Notes: generated by a model not told the origin, from the sequence alone. Shown: positions 5,074-59,211, counted from the first letter of the stretch. The stretch is DNA of 64,000 nt from Kondoa subrosea (GCA_039545335.1 BCIN01000007.1:62001-126000), one strand, 5' to 3'. Program-made: numbers and translations.

Positions 5074-6633
5074 TCATTCCCACTCGGCATCGACTTCAAT
5101 TTCGTGCACATTCTCTTCATCCGATGTCCACAGCTCATCGCGCTGGTAAGCAGCTTCGCACAGCGCGATCATACGTTCTTCCTCGTCTTCATCCCAAAGG
5201 GGGTAGTCTTCTTCGTCAGTAGTATGCAGAGAAGCAAGAGGAGAACTTTCTGGAGTTCGCCCTGTGCAGACATTTTTTTCAGCCTACAGAGTCGTTATAA
5301 AGGAAGACTTACTCTGCTCGACTTGTTTAGCTTTTTCTGCTACCCATTCACCACCAATAATAGTATCAATCCACAATTCCCCATCAATACCACGTACAAT
5401 CACCGTATCGAAAACATCGCACCGATAAATGACTTTTGTCTGAAACAAGCCAATACCAAAGACGGACCAACTCTTGATTTCTGATTGAGTGTGCATGTTG
5501 GTGAAGTAAGGTACAGCTCTAGTATCCACTACACAATACGCCAAAGAGGGAAAACATGATCTGTCAAAGATAGCTACCACACTGTCCAGTATCTGGAACA
5601 TCGACCAAAAGGTTTTCCAGGATTGCCACGGTAGGATGAAAGTGATTGTTTGGAGGTGCTTTAAAGGAGATGAAACGAGCAAAGGGAGTCCTGATAGAAT
5701 TGGCCACCCTAGCGAGAGGTGTTGAAGATGAGGACAAACTTGAGCCAGGTAATGAAGATCATCGTCATCAAATTGAGATAAGTCCAGAATGAGACATGTA
5801 ATGCTTCCCAAAGGCAGGTACTCTTTCGCTTGGAATATCCCCAGATCGATATTTGACCAGATAGCCTTGAGCCAATCTACTTTCGGTAGGCAGGTAAGGG
5901 TATGAAGCAATGATTCCATCTGTCCAGCCAATTCCTCTACGCCCAAATTATTTTCATTCCAAACCAATCGCTTTATCGGTAAGACGAAAGTCGGATCACC
6001 AGCAAGCTTCTTCTCCAAAGGTTCGAATAACGATTCTGTATCAATCAGGTGTAGCGAGAGTGTTTCTAGCCTTTCTGCAACCAAAAGAAACGACCCAAAT
6101 GCAGTGTAATCTGAACAACTCCAGCAAGGCGAAGCGATACAAAGATGAGAAAGTGAATTGATGAATGGCAAGCGCATTAGATCTGGGAGTTGAGGGACTG
6201 CCAATTTGTGCACAATGTAGGTGTTGTTCTGGTCTACTGCTGGTGGTCGGTTACAGTCAATGGCAAATGTGAGACGTTGCACATTCGAGCATGGCGCTAA
6301 AGTATCCATTTGCAGCTTAAGTAGACAATCATATTCTTCAGAAGCCTTGACTACTGCTTTTTGAGACCAATAATCGCATTGATCCGCTGCTTGCAAATGC
6401 AAACAGCTGTAGATCAAAGCTTCCTTGACTGAAAGAGCATGTTCTGGCTTGCTGCTGAGAATTGTAGCCGTTCTGTCATCTTGCAGATGGAAGAATTGTA
6501 GACTCTCGTAAAGAAGCGGTGAAGTGATTGCTCGGAAGCGAGTTGAGACAGAACAAATAGAAGCCAGGAAGGAGAGATTGCCAGAGTGATAAGAGAAGAT
6601 CCTCGAGAGCATCTCGTCCGATAGCCTGTCCAT
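5074..6633 (-). CDS. F-box protein with LRR-like region and acidic tail (family member 1)
   Basis: N-terminal F-box MDRLSDEMLSRIFSY..LASICSVSTRFRAITSPLLY. A terminal GTAAGT..CACAG intron joins an in-frame acidic exon ending EVDAEWE*. Confidence 0.75.
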
Positions 6634-6923
6634 ACTTGCTGCACCGCTTTGGATCTTTACCTGACAATGCTCCTACTGTCCTCTCGCGTCCGCTCTGCAC
6701 ACAAAGCTTTGCGTATCGCCTCTATTGCCCGCCTTGCCTATAGCTGATGGCTACTTTATGAGAGAAGAGCTCGACTTTCTGTTACGTGATGAGATCCAGT
6801 TTGCCGGGCAATGCTGTGCTCTTGCGTACTCTAATACGCCTCAGACACTCTCAGAACTTGTCGACACGCCGGCCCTCCGAATCAAAAATGCTTGTTCATG
6901 TCCAACCTTGCTCTTCAACGCTT

Positions 6924-12938: not shown

Positions 12939-15900
12939 ATGCCAAGAATCGACCCTGGAAATCCAGAATATGGTGCATGTCCCTTCATTTAAAAATCAAC
13001 AAACACAGATCTTGATGCTTGTGTGTTGGCAGTGGAATACCTACAAGAGGAATTAGACAAGATCTTAGCCAAAGACGTCGACAACAAATCACGTTACTCT
13101 TACCAGAAGGTCTGTGCTATATACCTTCGCGTGAACTGTGTACATACATGCTGAAGCTATACTACAGGCTATTCAAGGTCTCAAAACCTGTCGTATGAGG
13201 TGTTCTAGTCACTTTTTCTTCTCTTCTGACTGCGATATTCACGTGGCAGCGGTCAGGTGCAACAGTCCTAGCGATGCTCTAGAGATTAAAGGCATTGGTC
13301 CGAATATGGTCAAAATCCTACGCAAGTACATCAAGAAGAACGAAGAGGGTATGTCCGCATTATACCCTGTTCAATGATCAAGTTGATAGAGAACAGAAGG
13401 TTCCGATGCGGAAGAAAGACCGGAGAAGAAAGCTGCACCTAAAGGAAAGGCGAAAAAGAAAGCTGATGTAGATGTGTCGGTACGTCTGACCTGCTCTTGA
13501 CTAGAATGATGGCTAATTCCGGTACAGGACGATTCGGACGAGGATTCTCGCAAAAAGAAGACTACCAAGAAACCTGTTTCAAAGAAGCGAAAAGCAGCAG
13601 CTTCATCTGTATGGACTACTTGACATATACCAGAACTACGCTGATATAAAAGTCACAGGACGAAGAAGTTCAATTGGATGATGATTTCGATATTCTTGAT
13701 CCGAAAGCAACTCGAAAAGCAATCAAAGGCAAAGCCGATAAACCAAAGAAAGTCAAACGTTCTTCTGCAGCCAATGCTCGTGCTTTTGCTTTGTCAGAAG
13801 ATGAAACCGATACACCTTTATCGCCTGGAAAGAAAAAGACTACTAAGAAAGCTTCTCCTACAAAGACTAAAAAGAAGAAACGTTATGTACCTAAACTCAA
13901 TTCTGTTCCTTTTGGTGTTTTGGTTGCCATGTATAAAGAATGTGGGAAAGATCAAGACAATTGGAGAAAAGTTGGGTTTGATAAAGAGGATTTAGCTAAA
14001 AAAGCTCAGAAATTCACTACTACTGATATGATGGATAAAGTAGCACCAAAAGGAGCTGCTTCAGGTTGGGCTTATACTGGAATTTCTTGCATCAAGACTT
14101 TGGTTGAGAAAGGTTGTATTGTCAAAAAGGGTAGATCACCGGTCATGCATTACCTTACCGATCGAGGATTGACTACGGCTGCTAAATGTGCGGAATCGGC
14201 GGAAGTCACTAAATGGGATTTACCTGATGATTTGGATGATGCAAGCTTTGATGAAGGGGGAAAGAAGGATGATGATGATGACGATGATGATGAAAGACCA
14301 AAGAAGAAAGCAAAGACTACTGCAATCAAGGAGAAGAGCAAAAGCAGCAAAAAGAAGAAAGATGCTACTTCTGAAGAGGAAAGTGAAGAGGAAAGACCGG
14401 CGAAGAAAAAGCCTAGAGTTTCCACCAGTCGTCTGCCTTCTGGTATCGAACAGGATAGCAATGATGAAGAGGGTCAGTCGAACTGTTACGTCTGCGCTCG
14501 AACGATGCTGATTCGACGATACAGGTCCTTTCCATTTCATGTTCATTGATGATGGTACGTTGTGTTCAAATCAGCTTAATTCGCGCTAATTTTGTACTTA
14601 CACAGGAGGAGATCGCACCATGACGAAAGCGGACGCTGAATGTATGATGTCTCCTGTCTATGGTGCGACCTTATGCAAGATCGAATTCCGCTCTGCCCAA
14701 AGTCGGCATACTATGGCTAAATACATTGAAAAGAAGCAACGCAACAACGTCGCTGAACCTGGTCCCGAAGGTTCTACTGAGTTTGGCTTTATTCCTCGTT
14801 CCAAGACTGGTCCAGAAGCAACTGGTTTCCCAAAGAAGAAAGCGCCTCGTGAATCTGCTGCTGTCAAAGAGAAAGCTGTCGATTCTCTTATGGGTGGTCA
14901 GAAGAAGAAAAAACCTGTCGATAAAGCAGCAATGTACAAGATGCCTTCTCAAACCAAATCAGATGATGCTCCTGGACCTTCTTCAAATGCTTTTTCTTAC
15001 GCAAACAACAGCGACGAAGAGGCAGAACAGCTTGAAAGAGTCAAACGTGCATCTGCTGCTGAAGCTCGTCGTCAAGCTGAAGCTGCAAGTCGTCCGCCAA
15101 AAGAAGATGATGATTCAGGACCTGTTCCAAAACCTAAGCGAGCTTCCACTTCTAATGCTCCTGAACCGAGAGCTTCCACGTCTTCTCTTAACAATGCTAC
15201 TCGACCAATGTTTCAACGCAACATTTCTACTATTACCAAAGAATTTACTCCTTTCGATACTCGTCAAGCTGTGGTGATGCGATCTGGCGAATTTAAAGTG
15301 AAGATCTGTCTCGACAATAGAGAGAGGGGCTACGAGAAGAAGTTCAAAGATGATTCGAATGCAATTGTCACGCAATTGGCGACTGGAGATGTTGTTTGGG
15401 TCGCGGAAAGAAAGGTCCCATCTGGTAATCCTGAAAACGATAGGATTGTTTTGGATGGCGTAGTTGAGAGAAAGACTTTGGCTGATTTGGTCGGTTCGGT
15501 CAAATCGCGCCGGTATGAAGATCAGAAGGTGAGGTCTAGCATTACATGCAGCGGCATATCCCTTATCATGTGACGCAGAGGCGCATGAAGCAATCCGGCA
15601 TGACTCGTTTGTACTATTTGATCGAGAACGATGACAAGGCAGCTGTAAAAGGCTTTGAGCAAATGGTCAAAACGGTCAAGAGTCAAACTCAGGTTTTGGA
15701 TGGCTTCATTTGTCATAATTTCAAGGGAAAGGTTGATGCCGTCAAGCATCTCAAGCGAATGACAAGGGTGATGTCCGAGATCTACGAGGTCAGTTGATTG
15801 CTGGCACATATTCTAGTTTTTGACTAAATTTTGCCAAACAGCACAAAACACTTTATGGTATTCCTTCGCATTCAACCTCTCGAGCGAGCTATCTAAAGCA

Positions 15901-19811: not shown

Positions 19812-20274
19812 GCAACTCTCTTGAAGCAGCATCCACGTGTTACGGAGTAACATTGTGGCCTGCTCATCTAAGGTTGTGGAGGGACTTTATGTGTTTAAGG
19901 GCTCGATAGGCGGGACGTCTAGCGCGGTCTTGCACAATTGTACAGTGTAACAACATACGAATGAAGAATAAACGTCATTGACTTGCATCTGACCATTGAC
20001 GCATACCAGCAGCGTGCAGGCTTACTAGTGTTGACAATAGCCTACAGCGTATGAGCATAAGGGTTGCCTTCCCACCTATTGTAAACTTCAAACTTGTTCA
20101 GCTAAATTGAGCTCTTGGATTCCGACAGGCATCACGAGCTATTCGCTGGCGTCCAGAACGGAAAGCGATTCAAACGCAAGACTACCCAGAGCTTTGAGGC
20201 CAGATACAATCAACGTGATTGGATTCGTCTTGGCAAGACAATTTCCCATATTCCCCTCTGGACAACTTGAAGCC

Positions 20275-21667
20275 ATGAGATCTCTACCCGCTGAGCTAGT
20301 ACTCGCTGTCTTATCTCATCTTCGCGATGAACCCTCTCAATCTTTGGCTCGGGCTGCTCGCGTCTCCAAGTTCTTCTATGAAACCTTGAGGCCAATATTA
20401 TGGTCAAATATAACCCAACATCAATGTGAACATGATAGCTTCTACAATACGATTACGCAAAGCAAGTCTTTGGGAAAGTTGGTCCAATCAATTGAGATCA
20501 GATGCTATCTGGAAGTTGTTTACATGGGCGAAGAAATGTCTGAAGACAGTGAAGAGGAGTATCACTCTGCGGCTGACGTTGCGTCGATGCGGCAAATATC
20601 AAAAGCTCGGCTGTATAGGAATTTGGCCTGCTTGCAATTCTGCGAGCGTCTTGAATCATTAACCTTCTTCATTGCTGCTTCAGACTACCAAGAAGTCGAT
20701 GTATATGACGAATTGTTAGCTCACTATGTGGCCGTACCCGCAATGGAAGATCTGCGCCATCTACCGTGCTTGCCTCGTCTCAAGCAATTGGTCATTTCTT
20801 CTGAATTCGCTTCTAATTCGGTCGATTACTCGGCTTTCGGTTACTTGGCGGCTTCAGCACCTCAGCTCACTTATTTATCGGTGACATCTGTTCATTCTCA
20901 TGCTTTCTTCGATCAAATTTATGCAACACAGCTGAGGCACCCAAACTCACTTGCCAATTTGAGTACCTTTGTATGGGTAGTTGAAGGGTACGAAGGGAAC
21001 GATATGGAATTCGGGACTGCCGATATGCTCATGTGCGTTAGATGTCTCGTCGGCAGCAGTGTTCTTGTTCGCTCATGCGCGGGTTCCTGGAGTAGGCATC
21101 TCAATTACATGCAGTCTGTCAACAATCTGAAACTGAATAATGGCGAAGCAGGACCTATTCCCTTCTCCCTTCGATCTTCCAGATACTCCGAATTTCAATG
21201 TTACAAGCTTGGTATTAGAGGGAACTGCTGCCAATGTTTTGCACCTAGAGGCCATGAATCAACATTTCCCGTCTTTGAATCATCTGGAACTCCCCCTAGA
21301 CCTTGAATTTTACGGGGACGAGAACTCATCAGCTATTCTTTTGGAAAATGTGACATACAAGCAACTTACGAGTCTCAAGATTTCCGGCCGATATAGCCGT
21401 TTTCTTCACGTTCTCCATCGCATGCTAATATACAATACCACAATCTTTCCGAAGCTGGCGGTAGTTCGCATCATGCTTAGTGCAGTTCAAACACCAAAAC
21501 AGAATCTGGTAATGGAGCAATTGGTGGCAGACTGGTCGAGAGATGGCATAGGTAGAATAGAGACGTATTTTCAGGCCGGCGCGAGCAAGATGCACAGGTC
21601 AAGAGATGGAGTATGGTTCTCAGAAATGAAAGTCGGCGTGGGGATTGAGCTAGCGTTGGAAGCGTAA
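20275..21667 (+). CDS. F-box protein (family member 2), one intron near 21033-21095
   Basis: MRSLPAELVLAVLSHL..LARAARVSKFFYETLRPILW. Family motif DLRHLPCLPRLKQLVI..DYSAFG. Confidence 0.7.
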
Positions 21668-37420: not shown

Positions 37421-39203
37421 ATGTCACGCACTATAGGAGGATTCACTCGAACTAGAACCTCAACTCAGCAACAAACTCAATCCACTGAATGCCCTAAACC
37501 GGATGATAACTTTCCACCTTTGAGAGTGTTGGTTTTCGTTGGTGTAGTGTAGGTCGTCTTCCTTTTCTTGTTCTATCTCTGTGTTGGGCCATGTTTGCTT
37601 CTATGCTGGATTTGAGGCTTTCAACTCGCTGGAGATCGATCAGAACTTTGTGCTTCGGTGCCATTGGGCTCGAATCGTATATTTGTGCTGCGGTTCTTCG
37701 ATACTTTGCTCTATCTCTCTATCTTTCATCTCTATACGAGTGCTTTAACGATGCCATGTTCTTACTTTGAAATGATGTCAAACATATGGTTCTGCAATTC
37801 TGATAAGTTCATGATTGATTAACCTTCAATTACACATTACATTACATTACATTATTTACTGATCAAAGTAATCTCTTCATCGTTGATGAGCTCGTCATCT
37901 TTCCTCTTTTTACCCTTCTTGAATTGCGATTCGGCTGTCTTTCGGAAAAAGGAAAGCTGATGCGTTTTGATTATGACAGCGGATCGGGAAAATCGACATT
38001 ATCTAAAGCGATAGTGGATCAACTAGACGTACGTATTGACTTCGGTAGTATCAAAATTTTGATGACTCGGAAGCCAATCGTACAGAACTGGTCAAGAGTT
38101 TGTCAAGATGTCAGTCACTTGTCCAAATCAGGAATTAGGGGCGTATGCTGACTTCGAGAAGGAAAGGAACTAGGCAATAGACAAGCTTGTGAATCTATGG
38201 CTCGAAGCTACTTGACCCAGGTATGCACGACGGAAATAGTTTTAGCTTGCGCTGATGGAAACTTTTCCTTCGTTGCTACAGGTACTTTTGTCTTGCAGTG
38301 AATCATATGTCTAGGCTAATTGACCCGGACTTTGCAAATGTCAGGTAAGTCGAGAAGTATCAGTCACATTTGCGTGATTCAGGAGTTCCGATATTACAGG
38401 GTCGTCACCTCATTATTGATCGCCAAAACTTCAATGCAGCACAAAGGCATCATTTCGTTCAACTTGCACGAGCTTTTACGGTAGAATTGACGGCCGTAGT
38501 ATTTGATGTTTCACCCGACGTGCGTCAGTGTTCCCTGCATATCAGTTCACAACTGATGCGTAGGACGGATGGTGTACAGGAATGCGCACGGCGACTTAGG
38601 AGGAGAACTAATCATCCTACTATCGAATCGCCTGAGAAAGCTTTGGAGCTGCTGGACAGTTTTCTAGATATTTTCGAAGACGTTTCCGAATCAGAGGTAC
38701 GGCACTCCGAGGTCTTTTCCATTAGTGGAATGAACCGTGGGCTTGTTGTACAGGGATTTGATCGGATCTTTACTCTACCCAATAATCTACCTCTTGCACC
38801 TACTCGAGCAGATCTAACCAGTCTCATTTCTTCAATTGATGCAACACCTAAAATCTCTCCTTCGCGTTCAACATCAACAAGAGGTAGAGGTCGAGGTTCA
38901 CGAGGCAATAATACTTCAACACGAGGGAACGCTAGAGGTAGAGGAGCAGGAAGTGGGACTTTACCACCTCGAACCAATCCTTGGACAACTGCAGCAAGAG
39001 GTAGAGGGAACAATCGAACTACCAATGCTTCGGAAGGTGGGAATAGGTTAGGTGGATCTTCGACTTCCAATTCAAATACGATGACAAGCGATTCAAGTAT
39101 TGATGCTGCGGATTTGAGAGCTAGGAGGGAAGCTGCTTTGAGAGCTATTGAAGCAAGGTCACAGTCAAATACAAGTACATCAAGGCATGATGAAATTCTG
39201 TAA
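37421..39203 (+). CDS. P-loop nucleotide/polynucleotide-kinase-like protein (AAA_33-type) with RG-rich tail; snoRNA host gene
   Basis: Walker A GVVGSGKST (split by a 431-nt intron), WSRVCQDELG, QGRHLIIDRQNF..QR, ECARRLRRRTNHPTI, RGRG repeats. Confidence 0.8.
37762..37871 (+). ncRNA. Intronic box C/D snoRNA, predicted guide for 2'-O-methylation of the 5.8S rRNA Gm75-equivalent (SNORD96-like target)
   Basis: Perfect 9-bp terminal stem TTACTTTGA (37762-70) / TCAAAGTAA (37863-71). Box C ATGATGT at 37772, D' CTGA at 37800, C' ATGATTG at 37811, D CTGA at 37859. Guide TTCTGCAATT is complementary to 5.8S AAUUGCAGAA. Confidence 0.85.
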
Positions 39204-39241: not shown

Positions 39242-40728
39242 ATGGATCAAGAAGCTTTTCGTGCTTTGTTAGCTACTCCTCGTGATTCTGCTACTCCAGC
39301 CCGTGCATTCGGCAGTCGTCTGCCTAAGCGAAACCATGATCTTTCCTCTGCACCGAAAGAGACTGCTTTGAATTTGAAACCTAGGCCTAGTAAACCAGCT
39401 GCAGGTATAAAGGGGAAAGGGAAAGGGAAAGTACAGGATACAGAAGAGGAAGGATCAGCTGGGAATGGATATGTAGATAGAGCTAAACTTCGTCGACTGG
39501 GCAAGGCGAACGAATACTCTGATGTGGATTCTATCAAAGCTGCTTTTGATGCTCGATTAGCTGCTAGTGACGGCGATGGACCAGTAGAAGATCAATCGCA
39601 ATACCTGGTTAGTCTCGCTGTCCCTTTCAATGGAGTATGCTGATTTGTTATATGCTCATAGGGAGGAGATGCTAAACATTCTGTACTCGTTAAAGGACTC
39701 GATCATTCCCTTTTAGCTCAGACTAAAGCCAAACAAGAACTTGAAGCTGCTAATCAAGCAGAAGAAGAACTCGATTCCCTTTTATCCATACCTACAACTA
39801 CTACTTCTACCACTTCAGTCACGACATCAAAGAAAAGATCAAGGCAAGATCGAATTGATGAATTGAAAGAGAAATTAGCAAGGAAGATTGCGGAACCGAA
39901 AGTAAATGATGAAGAAGAACAATTTCGATCAAAGTTTAGAAAAGTCGGTCAACAACAGCAGCAACAGGAGACTAAAAGTGTTACCACTGTTTATGGGAAA
40001 GTCAAGAAGTTGCGTAAGAAGAAGAAGATCGCTCCTGTTTCGGATACTGTACCTCAAGCAATAACAGCAAAAGTAGAAGAGTCTACAGACATAGCGCCTG
40101 CTTCTCTGTCTGAACCTATACCAGAGCCGAAGATGGCAGAAGACGACCCGCTAGACGATGTCGATCCTGATATGGACATATTTGGCGGTGTAGCAGAATA
40201 TGGTGCATCTGGATCTTCATCGGATGAAGAAGTCGAAGAAGGCGAAACCAAACCTTCACTTCCTTCCACTTCTCTTGCTCCAACAAAAGCCAATTGGTTC
40301 GATGATGATCAAGAAGAAATTCATGCCGATCCAATAGCTGCACCAGTTTTACCTAAAAGACAAGTTGTTCTAGTAGAAGAAGAAAACCCTACTTCAACTC
40401 GTTTGAAAGGTCTTGAAGGATCTAGTGTGGATGTGAAAAGTTTGTTGGAAGCGGATAAAGCTGCTGAAAAGGAAGAAAAGAGGAAAGAAAGGAAAGCGAA
40501 ATATGCGAAACCGGTCGCTGAAGGTGGTGGTACTGGAGAGGTCGCGGAAAAGAAGAAGAAGAAACTGACTGATGTGAGTCTTCCTATACCCTTTGTATTC
40601 TCAGATGGGACGAGATGCTGATGCAAAAGCGACAGGCCGATAAGTTAAATCGAGATCATCAGGAATTGGAAGCTTATTGGAAGAAGAAGAAAGGTGGTGC
40701 AGATGCTCAACAAGAGGATGATGAGTAG
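39242..40728 (+). CDS. RED/IK-like splicing-associated protein (RED_N region)
   Basis: MDQEAFRALLATPR, YVDRAKLRR, YLGGDAKHSVLVKGLD, DIFGGVAEY, KLNRD. Confidence 0.8.
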
Positions 40729-41081
40729 GAGATCAAGCGAGGATTGAGAGCTGCTACTATCGCCTTTTGAGCTAATCTAGTACTTCATGCGTTCATCGCA
40801 AACACGTTCTTCTGGTCTGTCTCCCTTTTTGTTTTCATCAGTTTCATACTGCCGTGCGATATCATGAGTACTGCGACTGCTCTGACTTAGATGCGCGCTT
40901 ATTACGCTTTCGACCTCTTTTCGATTTCTTGCTTCGAATGACCGACTTGTTGTTTGCCGTCAACACGCAGCAACATCGATAGACCTTGCTCAAGACTGAA
41001 CTAGTACAGAAGAGCTCAACTGGCCGCGCTCAATGTGCAGCAGAGCAAGAACATCTATAGCTAGGACGACTCTCGTCAGTT

Positions 41082-42684
41082 ATGCCCTCAAATCATAGTC
41101 AAACCAATGGCCACAGCTCTGACAACGTGGCGAGCAGCTGCACAATGGTGACCTTGCCCAAAGAAGTCCTCATCTTGATCATCTCATTCTTGCCTGTCGA
41201 GCGGTCTCATTCTAACTTGGCTTCACTCTGCCGCGTATCTACTCTATTCCGTAGCCTGGCACAACCTCTACTCTATCAATCTCCAAGTCTGAACCACCTC
41301 TTCGACAAGAAGTTCACCAGCTGCATCAATGCTCGGCCAGATTTCGCTTCCTTAGTCAAGGAAGTTCAAGTCACAAGTTATCTTCGATTGGAGCAAATGG
41401 ACGCCCAGCAATACTGGACAACTCGTGAACGAAGGGCTGCCGTGAACAGGGCACTTTCTGGCATGAAATCGCAATTCGATTGCTTGAAGACTTGCAGCAA
41501 TGTTACTGATTTCTCTTTTACTGCTTGGTGCTCACCGCCTGGCGGAGTGGATGAACAGCAACATCCAATAGCAGACGATGTTCCCTTTCCGACTTCTCTT
41601 CAAATACAAAGTCTGCCTTTCATCGCTGGCTTAACTAATCTCTGCATCGCTTGTCCTTTCTGGAGCCAAGCTGATTTCACCGATTTTGGCGAAGTTCTTC
41701 TCCGAACACCTCTTCTTGATACTCTTACTCTCCAACTTGTCGACATCGTCAGCCTCTTTGCGCCTTACCTCAAACGGAAAGCAACAGATTCAACTTTCAC
41801 TCTTTCGCCTCGATACCTGATATGGATCGAAACGTGTTATGAGGACGACGCAGTAGAAAATGGGCTGACAGAACAGACCCAAGAACTCTTTCAAACAATG
41901 GGATGTTTGCCTCGGGTCGAGAAATTGAAGGTCGTCAACGGCTATTTTCATGACCAGTATCGAGCCCATGGACAAACATCATCACCTTTAGCCAATATCA
42001 TAGATTTTATTGTTGAGCAAACCGATTTTGAGGGCGACGATGTCGGTTACATAGCCAATCAAGCACCTGAACTTCAACACCTTACTCTTTGTTGGCCAAC
42101 ACCTTATAGCGTCGATATCACCACAAAAGCCATCTTCTCCAAACTCACTACTCTCACTCTTAAAATCCCAAGAAATTTCGATCCAAGAAGACAATCTTTA
42201 ATGTACGCCATGGACAAACTTACTTTTGTTTTCAACCGAGATTTCTTCCCTAAATTGGAATTCGTCTTACTCGATCTCACTCAAGCTTGGCATTTAACAA
42301 CAAAACAAACTCAACATTTAGCCAAACAATGGACAGGCTTTGCTGAAAGTTCGAAAATTAGATCAAGAGTAGCTTATAGAGCAGATGTTTTCAATACTGT
42401 CGTTACTAGGGAAATTGATGGGACTTGTTGGATTGAAACTCTGGTTGGTGGAGAAAAGACTGTTTATAAACCTACTGCTAGATGTGAGATACTTTCCTTC
42501 TACGGTGATGTGTAAGAATGTACAGAGCTGATTCTTTATGGATTCGACAGTGCATGAAGTAGCTGATGATGATGAAGATCAAGAGGAAGAAGATGAGCTG
42601 CTAGATTACGATAGCGATCTATCTGGATTTGATGATGCGGATTACGATACTGACGAGGGTTATGATGACCGAAGAGGAAGATAA
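41082..42684 (+). CDS. F-box protein (family member 3), closest paralog of 5074-6633
   Basis: LPKEVLILII..LASLCRVSTLFRSLAQPLLY; LCIACPFWSQADFTDFG; YRADVFNTVVTREIDG..WIETLVGGE. Same terminal intron and acidic exon as member 1. Confidence 0.75.
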
Positions 42685-54162: not shown

Positions 54163-55320
54163 ATGGCTGCATCTAGTATGTTGAAAGCGGGCAGGCTAGG
54201 TGAGTTGCAGAATAGCGAAATCACCAAGAAAGCAGGAATGATCTCTCATGAATCTACAGGTGGAAAGTACTGTCTAGTCACTGGTGGATCACGTGGAATT
54301 GGTTTGCAAACAGGCCGTAGGTTATTCGCTTCGAATATTATTGCTGTGTTACCAACGCGTGAATACTATACAGTGAAGTTTCTCCGCGAAGGGGCTGCCG
54401 GACTCTCTATCATTGACACGAATCAAGAAGCTCTCGACTCAGCTCGAAAGATCATGCAACCTTTTGCCGATGCTTCGGAAGCCAAGCTCACTTTCATCAA
54501 AGCTGATGTCTCCAAAGAAGCAGAAACAAAGTCATATATTGATCAAACTCTGGAAGCTTTTGATGGAAGATTGGATGTCAGCATACAAAATGCTGGAGTT
54601 TCAGCTAAAATGCAAAGATGGGATGAGACAGAATTATCAGAATACCATCGTCAGATGGATGTGAATACACAAGGTNTGCTNTATNNCTCTTTCNTNCNAN
54701 NNAAGGCTCATCNNTNGNNAGGCGTTTGGCTGGGCATCAAGTATTCCGCTCCTGCTCTACTCAAAACTCCCGCAAGACGATCTTCGAATTTACCTGAAGC
54801 TAGTTATCCGCCTACGAAAGCAATGGTCGTAATCAGCAGTGTTGCAGCTCTTTATGGACAATTTCAAGCTAGTTCTTACAATGCGAGTAAATGGGCTGCG
54901 AGAGGTCTCTCTCTGACAGCGGTAAGCTTGTCCATGTACGTCTTATGCCATATCTAATATAATACAAAGGCACACGAGTATGGGCCACAAGGAATAAGAT
55001 GCAACAGCGTTCATCCCGGACGTGAGTTTCGTCACTTTGCTATCTATTTCGTATGTCTGACGAGAATTGCAAAAGCGGTCGACACTCCAATGTTGAAGAC
55101 ACTCTTTGTACAACCTGAAGCACTCAAAGCAGTTCTAGAACCAATCCCGTTGAAACGAATAGCACAACCTGAAGAAATTGCCAACGTAGTCTGCTTCCTA
55201 GCGTCCGATGAAGCTTCTTATGTAAATGGATCCTTGATTGCTGTGCACGGTGGACAGATTCCTCGTACGTATCGTTCGTCTCTGTAATCGAAGTTCAGCT
55301 GATCCTGCTTGCTAGTCTAA
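54163..55320 (+). CDS. Short-chain dehydrogenase/reductase
   Basis: VTGGSRGIG, NAG, ISSVA, YNASK, IRCNSVHPG, PEEIANVVCFLASDEASYVNG. Confidence 0.93.
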
Positions 55321-56902: not shown

Positions 56903-59211
56903 TTACTGCGCCTCACTAACATCACTAGCAACAGATCCCGCTCGTTTGCCTCTTCCACCACCTTTCTTAGCCCTAGTAGCTTTCTTCACAGTGCTAGGTG
57001 GAGGGCTGATCGGTTCTCTTGAAACCTCCCTACTGGCAGCTGAAATTCGTTTTGATCTTCTTACAGGCACAGCCTGGGTACCAGGTGTGGGTGGCTCAGG
57101 AGCTGATGCTCTTACATTTCTAGGTTTTCGGCTACTGGTCGATACTCTAGAAACAGGCGAGGAATTCTTGACTTGTCTCATTTCAGGTACATCATCTTCC
57201 TCTTCTGCTTCAGTAGCTGATTCTTGGGGTCTGCTAACAGCTTCAGCTTTAGAGCGAGCAGGAACTTCGTCTTCTTGATCCGAGGTAGAACCAAAAGCGC
57301 CAGGCAAGACTTTCCGTTTTGGTGTTTTCTGCTTCTCCTCCTCCGTTCGCTCTTGCTGTACTGGTTGTTCTTGTTCAGGTTGATCTTCATCCATCTTTTC
57401 TCCATCTTCTGTATCTGATTTACTTTGTTCTCTTTCTACAGCTCTCTTCTTTTCCCTTCCTGCTTTTTCTTTCGGTTCTGGTACACTACGTTTCCCTTGC
57501 TTTTCACTAACGACAGGCGAAACTTGTCTTGATCTGTTTTCAGGTTGTTGTTGAGGTGAATAGAGCGCTCGAGGGGATTGTTGACCTTCTCTTTGTAATC
57601 TGAGTTGAGCAGGTAAACTCTTCAATTGAGCAGGAGCATTATACTTTGGTTGATTAGAAGAAGAAGAAGGAGGAGCAGGTGATTTAGAAACAATCTTTTC
57701 TTCTTCTTGAACTCGAGTAAAAGGTGATCCACTTGTTATTATTGAATAGGAAGTAGAAGGTCTTGGTGAAGCTTTAGGTGAATTCGTGTTTGATGAGAAA
57801 GAAGGTTTCCGTAAAGGTGAATTGAGACGTAGCGCTTCTATCACATTCTTCATTCCTCCTGTTGAACTTGCGGAACGGAAAGCAGGTGAAGCCGATAATG
57901 GGATATTCTGGGCAGAGATTTTATCCCTTGAGGAGGAAGACGAAGGTGGTGCCCAAGGTAATTGAGCTACTGTTGAATCTACTTCCATTGCTACATCTCC
58001 ATTTGGTTGCGGTTGTTGTTCCTCAGTTTTCGAGATCGAAGAGTCTAATTCAGACATGACGCTTAATAAACCTTTCTTTAGTAAAGCCCGTTTGCGAGCC
58101 GCTTCATTGTCTGAGGCTTTCAAAGCAGGACAATCAACTATTCGAGTTGCTTCAACATATCGACCTTGAGCTATCAGGCGAGTGAGGATCCAATCGGCGA
58201 GGAGATCGCGATTCGCAGGTTTGAGGGAGGAAGGTGGATTGGTAGCATAAGCGAGAGCTATCGAATCTTCTATAGCGTCAAAGGGAACATTGAGGAGCGC
58301 TTTCATCGATGGTTTGATGACTAGACCGGATTCGTTTGCTGATTGGCAAAGTGTCAGTCTTGATCCAAGCCAACACAAATGTATTCACCTCCTAGTGCAG
58401 TCGAAAAGACTGCGCGCACTAATTCTGCATGCTGGGAATCCATAGATCTAGCCCAACGAAGCGCTTCTGCTGGATCACCACTCTTGACGAAAGCTTCAAC
58501 CACGCTTCGAATTGCTTCAGGTGTTTCAATGCTAACTCGAGCTTGGCGTACGAAAGTGATCAGGTATTTCGGTGAAGCAGAGAGAAGATGTAGAATAGAG
58601 GGGAGAAACTGCGAGTACGGATCAAACGAGAGCTGCGTAACTTGAACTGAAAATCGCGTACATCTGGTACCACTCCTGGAAAAGCCAATGATCTTACACC
58701 AGCCTGTTTCAGAGATTCTATCATCTATCAATGGGCGAGAACAAGTATTGCTTACACCTATCCGATCGTGATCAAGCTGCCAGTAGCCCTCGGTCGACTT
58801 GAGGAAACTCTGAGGTATACAATGTTCTTCAGCGAAATCCATTGCAGCTTGTTTCGATTGATCCAAATGCAAGTAGTACCTGGGCTAGACATGAAAATGT
58901 GCAAGAGAAGCTTGCGAGGATGAGCTTTACTGTATACATTGTTTCTCAAGTGTCGCGAAGACTGTAGATTCCTGGACCATTCTGAGCAGACTTGAGGCTT
59001 GCATATCGGTTTGCGGTGGATAGAGCCACGATTCTATGCACTCTCTGTCAGCCTTGCAGTCTATGGTCTTGAGTAATATTATTCTCTCCCACTTACCATC
59101 GTTTTGGATGCCAGCCAATTCTAGCAAATGGTCTATCAGCAGTCTACCATCCAGGCATCGTGTTCTCGCAATGTGCTGTGCTTGTTCGGATGCAACTGCT
59201 TCGACTTCCAT
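56903..59211 (-). CDS. ELYS-like nuclear pore assembly protein with disordered C-terminus
   Basis: LLIDHLL, LYPP, YYLHLD, FAEEHCIP..GYWQLDH, EALRWAR (ELYS-domain pattern); long S/P/E/K-rich tail. Confidence 0.75.

Follow-up and report, generated by a model that had tools for sequence, protein, structure and literature searches.

Signals consistent with stepwise removal of a 179-nucleotide intervening sequence in a Kondoa subrosea P-loop kinase gene

A stretch of 64,000 nucleotides (nt) from Kondoa subrosea (GCA_039545335.1, BCIN01000007.1:62001-126000), referred to here as the window and numbered from its first letter, was analysed computationally with regard to a 179-nt non-coding gap (38221-38399, + strand) that interrupts a predicted kinase gene. 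The window reads as fungal-looking DNA of about 45% G+C with many short introns. The gap can be divided into three abutting intron-like units, and the splice signals at its internal borders are real-looking, non-random and far beyond what chance would supply. We consider the chances roughly even that it is a complex intervening sequence composed of three abutting U2-type introns, which would be removed stepwise through zero-length exons; the best explanation of its location is that it sits at an old intron position, which ancestrally would have held one short intron.

Layout of the interval within its host gene

According to a script check, the only two AGGT tetramers in the gap (38280-38283 and 38343-38346) both lie at unit borders and split it into 61, 63 and 55 nt, in exact agreement, to the base, with the coordinates, lengths and unit ends of the three-unit tiling proposed in an earlier note on this DNA (the original prediction). 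The units are as follows:

38221-38281, + strand: unit 1, 61 nt; donor GTATGC, branch motif GCTGATG (38251-38257), acceptor CTACAG
38282-38344, + strand: unit 2, 63 nt; weak donor GTACTT, branch motif GCTAATT (38315-38321), acceptor TGTCAG
38345-38399, + strand: unit 3, 55 nt; consensus donor CAG/GTAAGT, acceptor TTACAG

The units join end to end, leaving both outer splice sites, GTATGC at the 5' end and TTACAG at the 3' end, intact and uninterrupted, and the branch A of unit 1 (38255) lies 26 nt before the end of that unit. Their lengths are normal when compared with the 31 introns used for training below (40-67 nt) and with the verified short introns of the kinase gene (57-60 nt). No structured RNA or second small nucleolar RNA (snoRNA) was found within the 179 nt, where the Rfam match was no better than chance (HTH-XRE, E = 4.4, minus strand), and the fold of the interval is unremarkable (z = -1.43, with 18 of 200 shuffles folding equally well).

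Exon limits of the host gene were fixed by tblastn of seven homologues together with the sequence itself:

37421-37548, + strand: exon 1, from the start codon to ...VFVGV, ending in phase 2; homologue tblastn places PLRVLVFVGVV here
37549-37979, + strand: intron 1, 431 nt, both ends set by homology
37980-38028, + strand: exon 2, from tblastn and sequence; GSGKST (Walker A) at 37981-37998
38086-38109, + strand: exon 3, from tblastn and sequence
38167-38220, + strand: exon 4, ELGNRQACESMARSYLTQ, with the 3' end ...ACCCAG; aligns with homologue stretches such as DLGDRRACEEMVRFGLAQ
38400-38519, + strand: exon 5, GRHLIIDRQNF...VSPD, part of an AAA_33-type kinase core
38580-38696, + strand: exon 6, from homologue alignment
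38754-39203, + strand: exon 7, from homologue alignment

With the GTAGGT donor at 37549, the joining of exon 1 to exon 2 completes the P-loop, and exon 5 begins with GGTCGT at 38400. All seven exons are open and conserved, yielding a product of 313 residues colinear with homologues of 254-306 residues. The first 42 residues of exon 5 match positions 70-111 of the Pfam profile AAA_33 (E = 5.3e-4), which is below the curated cut-off because just 42 residues fall in this exon, while the full-length homologues P0012, P0039 and P0009 pass the AAA_33 threshold at 49-60 bits. Searching 1.84 billion representatives with HMMER, using the region 38400-38861 as the query, returned 46 proteins at E <= 0.001, the best of which (P0001) is 75-78% identical and is an unspliced reading frame. 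Hypothetical proteins from a Microbotryomycetes species and from Puccinia graminis are the homologues that carry a name, the label of the P. graminis protein being tRNA ligase kinase domain-containing. The host protein is, as predicted from these matches, a P-loop kinase of the AAA_33 or tRNA-ligase-kinase-like kind.

When the whole gap is removed, the reading becomes SYLTQGRHLIIDRQNF, that is, SYLTQ/GRHLIIDRQNF across the junction. The spliced product was aligned with 45 homologues (the 46 less a protein of 1,538 residues), and at SYLTQ/GRHLIID the row from the window contains 0 gap columns and 0 of the 29 homologues spanning the junction carry extra residues, one of these 29 (P0002) being a fragment that is gappy there. 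No junction-spanning homologue has an insertion, and the conserved protein therefore needs all 179 nt to be removed, which bears out the claim of the original prediction that the protein is continuous in this way only. The mature mRNA is predicted, from homology and not from cDNA, to lack the entire interval.

Partial retention is uniformly disruptive. If unit 2 is kept, translation again gives the in-frame peptide VLLSCSESYV followed by TAG (38312-38314), as had been read before, and unit 2 holds two in-frame stops; all remaining partial retentions of the gap likewise run into a stop. Downstream of the unit 2 TAG two exon junctions remain (38519/38580 and 38696/38754). A wrong gene model or a decaying gene, in which the interval would be partly coding or the locus a pseudogene, could be sought in three mini-exons that keep the frame and are free of stops (38282-38308, 38345-38356 and 38345-38362), but these require poor splice sites and no homologue has residues at that place, and the seven open and conserved exons with their colinear product also speak for an intact gene. 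Since unit 2 holds two in-frame stops, a single sequencing error cannot explain it either, and we regard this reading as hardly credible. The three mini-exons were enumerated as candidates and rejected on homology.

Other introns of the same gene were also verified. Those at 38520-38579 (60 nt) and 38697-38753 (57 nt), + strand, are both in frame and stop-free, and therefore the frame 38349-39203 runs through both; retaining one or the other would add 20 or 19 residues without truncation. The homology-verified 57-nt intron at 38110-38166 (+ strand) has the acceptor AAG instead of YAG, with a strong GCTGAC branch 15 nt upstream, and shows that acceptors off the consensus occur in this genome.

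Strength of the splice signals and routes of removal

Splice signals were scored using a rough model derived from the window itself: frame-restoring GT..AG segments formed 342 clusters, 51 of these passed a consensus filter, and the 31 of <=70 nt were used to train matrices covering donor, branch and acceptor (median intron length 52 nt; branch-to-acceptor distance 9-37 nt, median 13). The scores obtained, with the share of the 28,927 GT..AG pairs of 40-100 nt that score as high, were:

Unit 1: 20.1 (103 of 28,927)
Unit 2: 7.7 (6,608 of 28,927)
Unit 3: 19.5 (139 of 28,927)
Training introns: 17.8-27.6

The statement of the original prediction that each unit is of normal intron length stands as far as length is concerned; in score, units 1 and 3 fall inside the training range, as real introns do, whereas unit 2 falls below all 31 training introns.

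The two internal sites that bound the middle unit are stronger than the outer ones. With a score of 9.9, the internal donor at 38345 exceeds every other donor of the gene, its six homology-verified donors scoring 5.2-9.1 and the outer donor 5.2; only 7 of 128,000 positions on both strands reach such a value. The internal acceptor with its branch at 38281 scores 14.9 against 9.6 at the outer acceptor (38399), a value equalled or exceeded at 63 of 128,000 positions. For an intron of this length, chance would supply both sites together with a probability of about 2.6e-4, and in 20,000 dinucleotide shuffles of the interior an equally strong internal acceptor with branch and donor in the right order never arose (0/20,000). 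As a control, the verified 431-nt intron 1 was found to contain zero internal donors scoring >=5 and zero internal acceptors with branch scoring >=11, while at the same thresholds the 179-nt interval has three donors and two acceptors.

These results have to be set against a rival reading, a single 179-nt intron removed in one reaction from 38221 to 38399, in which the internal sites are cryptic, unused or rarely used, being relics or accidents. The same gene splices an intron of 431 nt and so handles long introns, the outer donor, outer acceptor and reading frame all fit, and unit 2 is indistinguishable from a random GT..AG pair. Any three-way AG/GT tiling with units of 40-100 nt appeared in 586 of 20,000 shuffles, and in 97 of 20,000 (0.5%) even the poorest unit of such a tiling scored no lower than the weakest one observed, a figure that by itself is not overwhelming, since the whole window had been scanned when the original prediction was made. 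On the other hand, the internal acceptor with branch and the internal donor each outscore the outer sites to which they would have to lose, they lie nearer to their partners, at modal intron length, and neither the shuffles nor the control intron contain such a pair; selection would moreover be expected to purge strong unused sites from a gene with short introns. We therefore consider removal in one step somewhat unlikely, while giving it appreciable weight.

A strong internal pair alone could bound a pseudo-exon, and it is the GT start and AG end of the middle piece that make this case special. Within the window GT follows 511 of 9,315 AG sites; for strong acceptors the count is 8 of 154, and for the training introns it is 3 of 31. 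Of 195 strong donors 20 have AG directly before them, and among the training introns 5 of 31 do. The joint chance that an ordinary cassette both starts with GT and ends with AG is about 0.5-1.6%. With these ends, use of the internal sites need not be a dead end: once unit 1 is out, exon 4 abuts GTACTT, and once unit 3 is out, TGTCAG abuts exon 5. Each excision thus recreates a usable site at a zero-length exon, because the GT of unit 2 directly follows the acceptor of unit 1 and its AG directly precedes the donor of unit 3.

The stepwise route may be pictured as follows. In a fungus with short introns the spliceosome would most likely pair the nearest sites over short distances, so that the outer donor at 38221 would be joined to the strong acceptor, with its branch, 61 nt further downstream. 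The GTAAGT donor at 38345 would likewise be joined to the outer acceptor, 55 nt away from it, and both unit 1 and unit 3 would leave as ordinary introns. The middle 63 nt, with a weak GTACTT donor and a CTAAT branch, would then leave in a further reaction as a third and weak intron; another route would be for the donor formed by the first excision to reach a downstream acceptor. The co-transcriptional order 1, 2, 3 is likely, because the weak donor would then be spared competition with GTAAGT. Transcripts that keep unit 2 would encounter the in-frame TAG, would encode a truncated P-loop fragment and would probably be degraded as a by-product.

Several observations weigh against stepwise removal. 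Unit 2 is the weakest part, its overall score being equalled by 22.8% of the random GT..AG pairs, and its donor GTACTT, which had already been called weak in the original prediction, scores 2.7 and so lies under all six verified donors of the gene; its acceptor with branch, at 5.1, comes near those of two verified introns of the gene (5.2 and 6.2). Unit 3, and hence the outer 3' end as well, lacks a CTRAY branch and offers as candidates only GTGAT (38375-38379) or CCGAT closer to the end. The branch-to-acceptor distances of the three units (26, 25 and 22 nt) fall in the upper tail of the training set. The scores themselves lean towards consensus because the 31 training introns were chosen by consensus motifs, and an unbiased donor set, which was attempted, contained about half false positives and was left unused. 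Elsewhere in the window abutting high-scoring pairs occur at 3 loci where 3.6 are expected by chance, which gives no hint that this genome commonly places introns end to end. A search among sequencing runs found the locus in two DNA runs of the probable source sample and in none recorded as RNA. Whether the internal sites are used, in which order the units leave and what becomes of transcripts retaining unit 2 are all matters that we infer from sequence.

A further possibility is that unit 2 is a regulated poison cassette exon of 63 nt lying between units 1 and 3 as its flanking introns, the inclusion of which would give a stop-containing and degraded transcript, while productive mRNA would be obtained either by skipping (38221 to 38399) or by re-splicing from the recreated GTACTT to 38399; the host transcript would then yield an intronic snoRNA without protein. 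At the sequence level the flanking units score as introns, the in-frame TAG has two junctions downstream of it, and a box C/D snoRNA candidate lies within intron 1. The architecture also fits that of the animal "recursive exon", in which a recreated 5' site competes with a downstream 5' site (as reported in PMC6224609 and PMC8605326), and since the downstream site scores 9.9 and the recreated one 2.7, the former should prevail in most cases, favouring inclusion. However, nothing points to regulation, to sensitivity to nonsense-mediated decay (NMD) or to a link with snoRNA output, the snoRNA candidate scores under every Rfam threshold, and a plain cassette needs no GT start and AG end, a coincidence of about 1%. 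Dominant inclusion without re-splicing of unit 2 would leave a conserved kinase gene with little protein, and exon skipping is uncommon in intron-definition fungi (PMC6616335). We judge the poison cassette unlikely. The original prediction had offered ratchet splicing and a cassette as a choice; the internal junctions do carry real-looking signals, as it supposed, but the two are outcomes of one architecture and are inseparable by sequence alone.

Two other places in the window where high-scoring intron-like units abut at AG/GT were noted, both on the + strand. At 14473-14605 the simpler reading is two introns around a 30-nt exon, and at 57087-57240 the units are antisense to a long minus-strand reading frame; together they come to approximately the chance expectation. 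Close intron-like pairs also occur on the + strand at 35991-36047/36056-36112, 16938-16991/17012-17060 and 18040-18088/18116-18171, with gaps of 8, 20 and 27 nt, which suggests, from sequence features, a very intron-dense genome with micro-exons.

Origin of the interval and comparison with known systems

The only close relative in the protein collections is P0001, which was also the sole match of a 120-residue protein query. A 267-residue read-through query gave no match in a protein search whose length window left out short fragments, and a frame of 49 residues leading from exon 4 into units 1-2 gave no match in the same kind of search. The frames of P0001, P0003 and P0005 begin a few codons before the G of the motif G..[IV][IV]DRQNF, in a stretch that ends in Q, and these starts fit an intron at the same place in those genomes.

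A metagenome scan returned five distant loci (L001-L005) with 31-34% identity. In L001 and L002 the upstream exon ends with ...YLSQ and the next one starts with GLNVVVDRQNF, a single 64-nt GTGCGT...CGCAG intron lying between them; in L001 this intron has the same position and phase (Q/G) as the 179-nt interval. L003-L005 read through without an intron there and may be transcripts. Given the single intron of L001 at Q/G, the position is therefore old and holds one ordinary intron in that relative, and the window organism carries roughly three times as much sequence there as L001.

How the additional sequence was acquired is not explained by duplication. Measured against shuffled controls, the three units show no excess similarity to one another (p = 0.79, 0.155 and 0.71), on which ground an origin by tandem duplication was rejected; they have no detectable similarity to the L001 intron and give marginal values only with other introns of the kinase gene. 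The lack of similarity among the units leaves a recent tandem triplication unsupported and their origin unexplained, which also counts against the stepwise reading. An AG/GT junction is a classic proto-splice site. One could imagine that an old intron of about 60 nt grew by gaining whole introns at its own junctions and that the result now depends on obligatory three-step recursive splicing via two zero-length exons, a proposal that we regard as quite improbable. If it were true, the interval would be the limiting case of the micro-exons of the window and would document, in a natural setting, the gain of introns at a place already holding one, and the slow middle step would itself hold back expression of the host gene.

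The usual explanation of recursive splicing is that it helps to cope with very long animal introns. Read as three abutting introns, the interval would be a compact case of an already known recursive-splicing kind, and a report of three abutting introns of modal length in a fungus was not found in the open-access literature. A precedent is the zero-nucleotide recursive splicing reported for the 375-nt BOT1 intron in the basidiomycete Cryptococcus neoformans, removed as 210 + 165 nt (preprint by Burke et al., 10.1101/224170). This single fungal case and the long introns of Drosophila represent ratchet-point splicing, which shares with the interval an acceptor followed directly by a donor (AG/GT), the recreation of a splice site at a zero-length exon once a segment is removed, and a final mRNA without trace of it. 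It differs in that here two such points would lie within 179 nt, with segments of modal length (55-63 nt) where known cases have 165-210 nt or kilobases, so a very long intron cannot be the reason for recursion; moreover, the donor at the first ratchet point is the weak GTACTT and not a consensus one, and the points are here read from sequence alone.

Vertebrate and fly recursive-splicing (RS) exons likewise consist of a short segment that starts with a 5' site immediately after a 3' site and ends at a stronger 5' site, the choice between the 5' sites determining removal or inclusion and inclusion giving a stop-containing transcript (as reported in PMC6224609 and PMC8605326). In contrast, those systems operate by exon definition in long introns, while this genome, with its short introns, most likely splices by intron definition, and here an included segment could still leave later as a 63-nt intron of its own. 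Poison cassette exons, including those of snoRNA host genes, share with unit 2 a short segment with an in-frame stop between two good introns and upstream of exon junctions, but unit 2 has intron-like GT...AG ends and a branch motif, and its inclusion, decay and regulation are hypothetical here.

Complex introns of fungi are described, in PMC6616335 and PMC7138796, as containing several U2 units that are removed in consecutive reactions, the smallest possible internal intron being taken first, and as arising via new splice sites or added sequence at an existing position. Such stwintrons or "dual intervening sequences" have in common with the interval the several U2 units, consecutive excision with the smallest first and an existing intron position. 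In a stwintron, a splice element of the external intron (donor, branch or acceptor) is split by the internal one, and the external intron consequently cannot go first. The 179-nt interval is not a stwintron, because its outer splice elements are uninterrupted and complete units merely abut.

If stepwise removal is true, a fungal intron of 179 nt made up of three units of modal length would imply that zero-length exons arise, and may be needed, under intron definition at about 50-60 nt. It would offer a compact and easily mutated model for competition between a recreated weak donor and a strong one, as well as a model for whether fungi permit re-splicing at exon-exon junctions and for intron gain beside existing introns. 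Should the internal sites be unused, the interval would be a clean case of strong decoy sites being ignored, which would be informative for splice-site prediction.

A snoRNA candidate in intron 1 and other features of the window

The original prediction regarded the kinase gene as a snoRNA host gene, a view for which a plausible candidate exists in intron 1:

about 37762-37871, + strand: box C/D snoRNA candidate, within intron 1 (37549-37979)

The candidate has a 9-bp terminal stem, with AUGAUGU (37772-37778) adjoining its 5' arm and CUGA (37859-37862) its 3' arm, and internal boxes consisting of a D' CUGA near 37800 and a C'-like UGAUUGA. Its Rfam scores stay below threshold: the window gives no match at gathering score, and the best hit of the candidate, a weak one, is to SNORD53_SNORD92 (17.9 bits where the threshold is 46, E = 2.9), with which it has part of the first guide in common. 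At the position of intron 1, L001 is without an intron. The further claim that the cassette uncouples snoRNA output from protein output found no support beyond this candidate, and any link between the snoRNA and NMD is speculation.

The gene directly downstream of the kinase gene (39248-40621, + strand) matches the N-terminal region of RED-like proteins and has a 54-nt intron at 39608-39661. F-box-like domains are present in three long reading frames of the window (5284-6672, - strand; 20041-21306, + strand; 41061-42515, + strand), and 18 scattered N characters at 54676-54719 mark a local ambiguity of the sequence.

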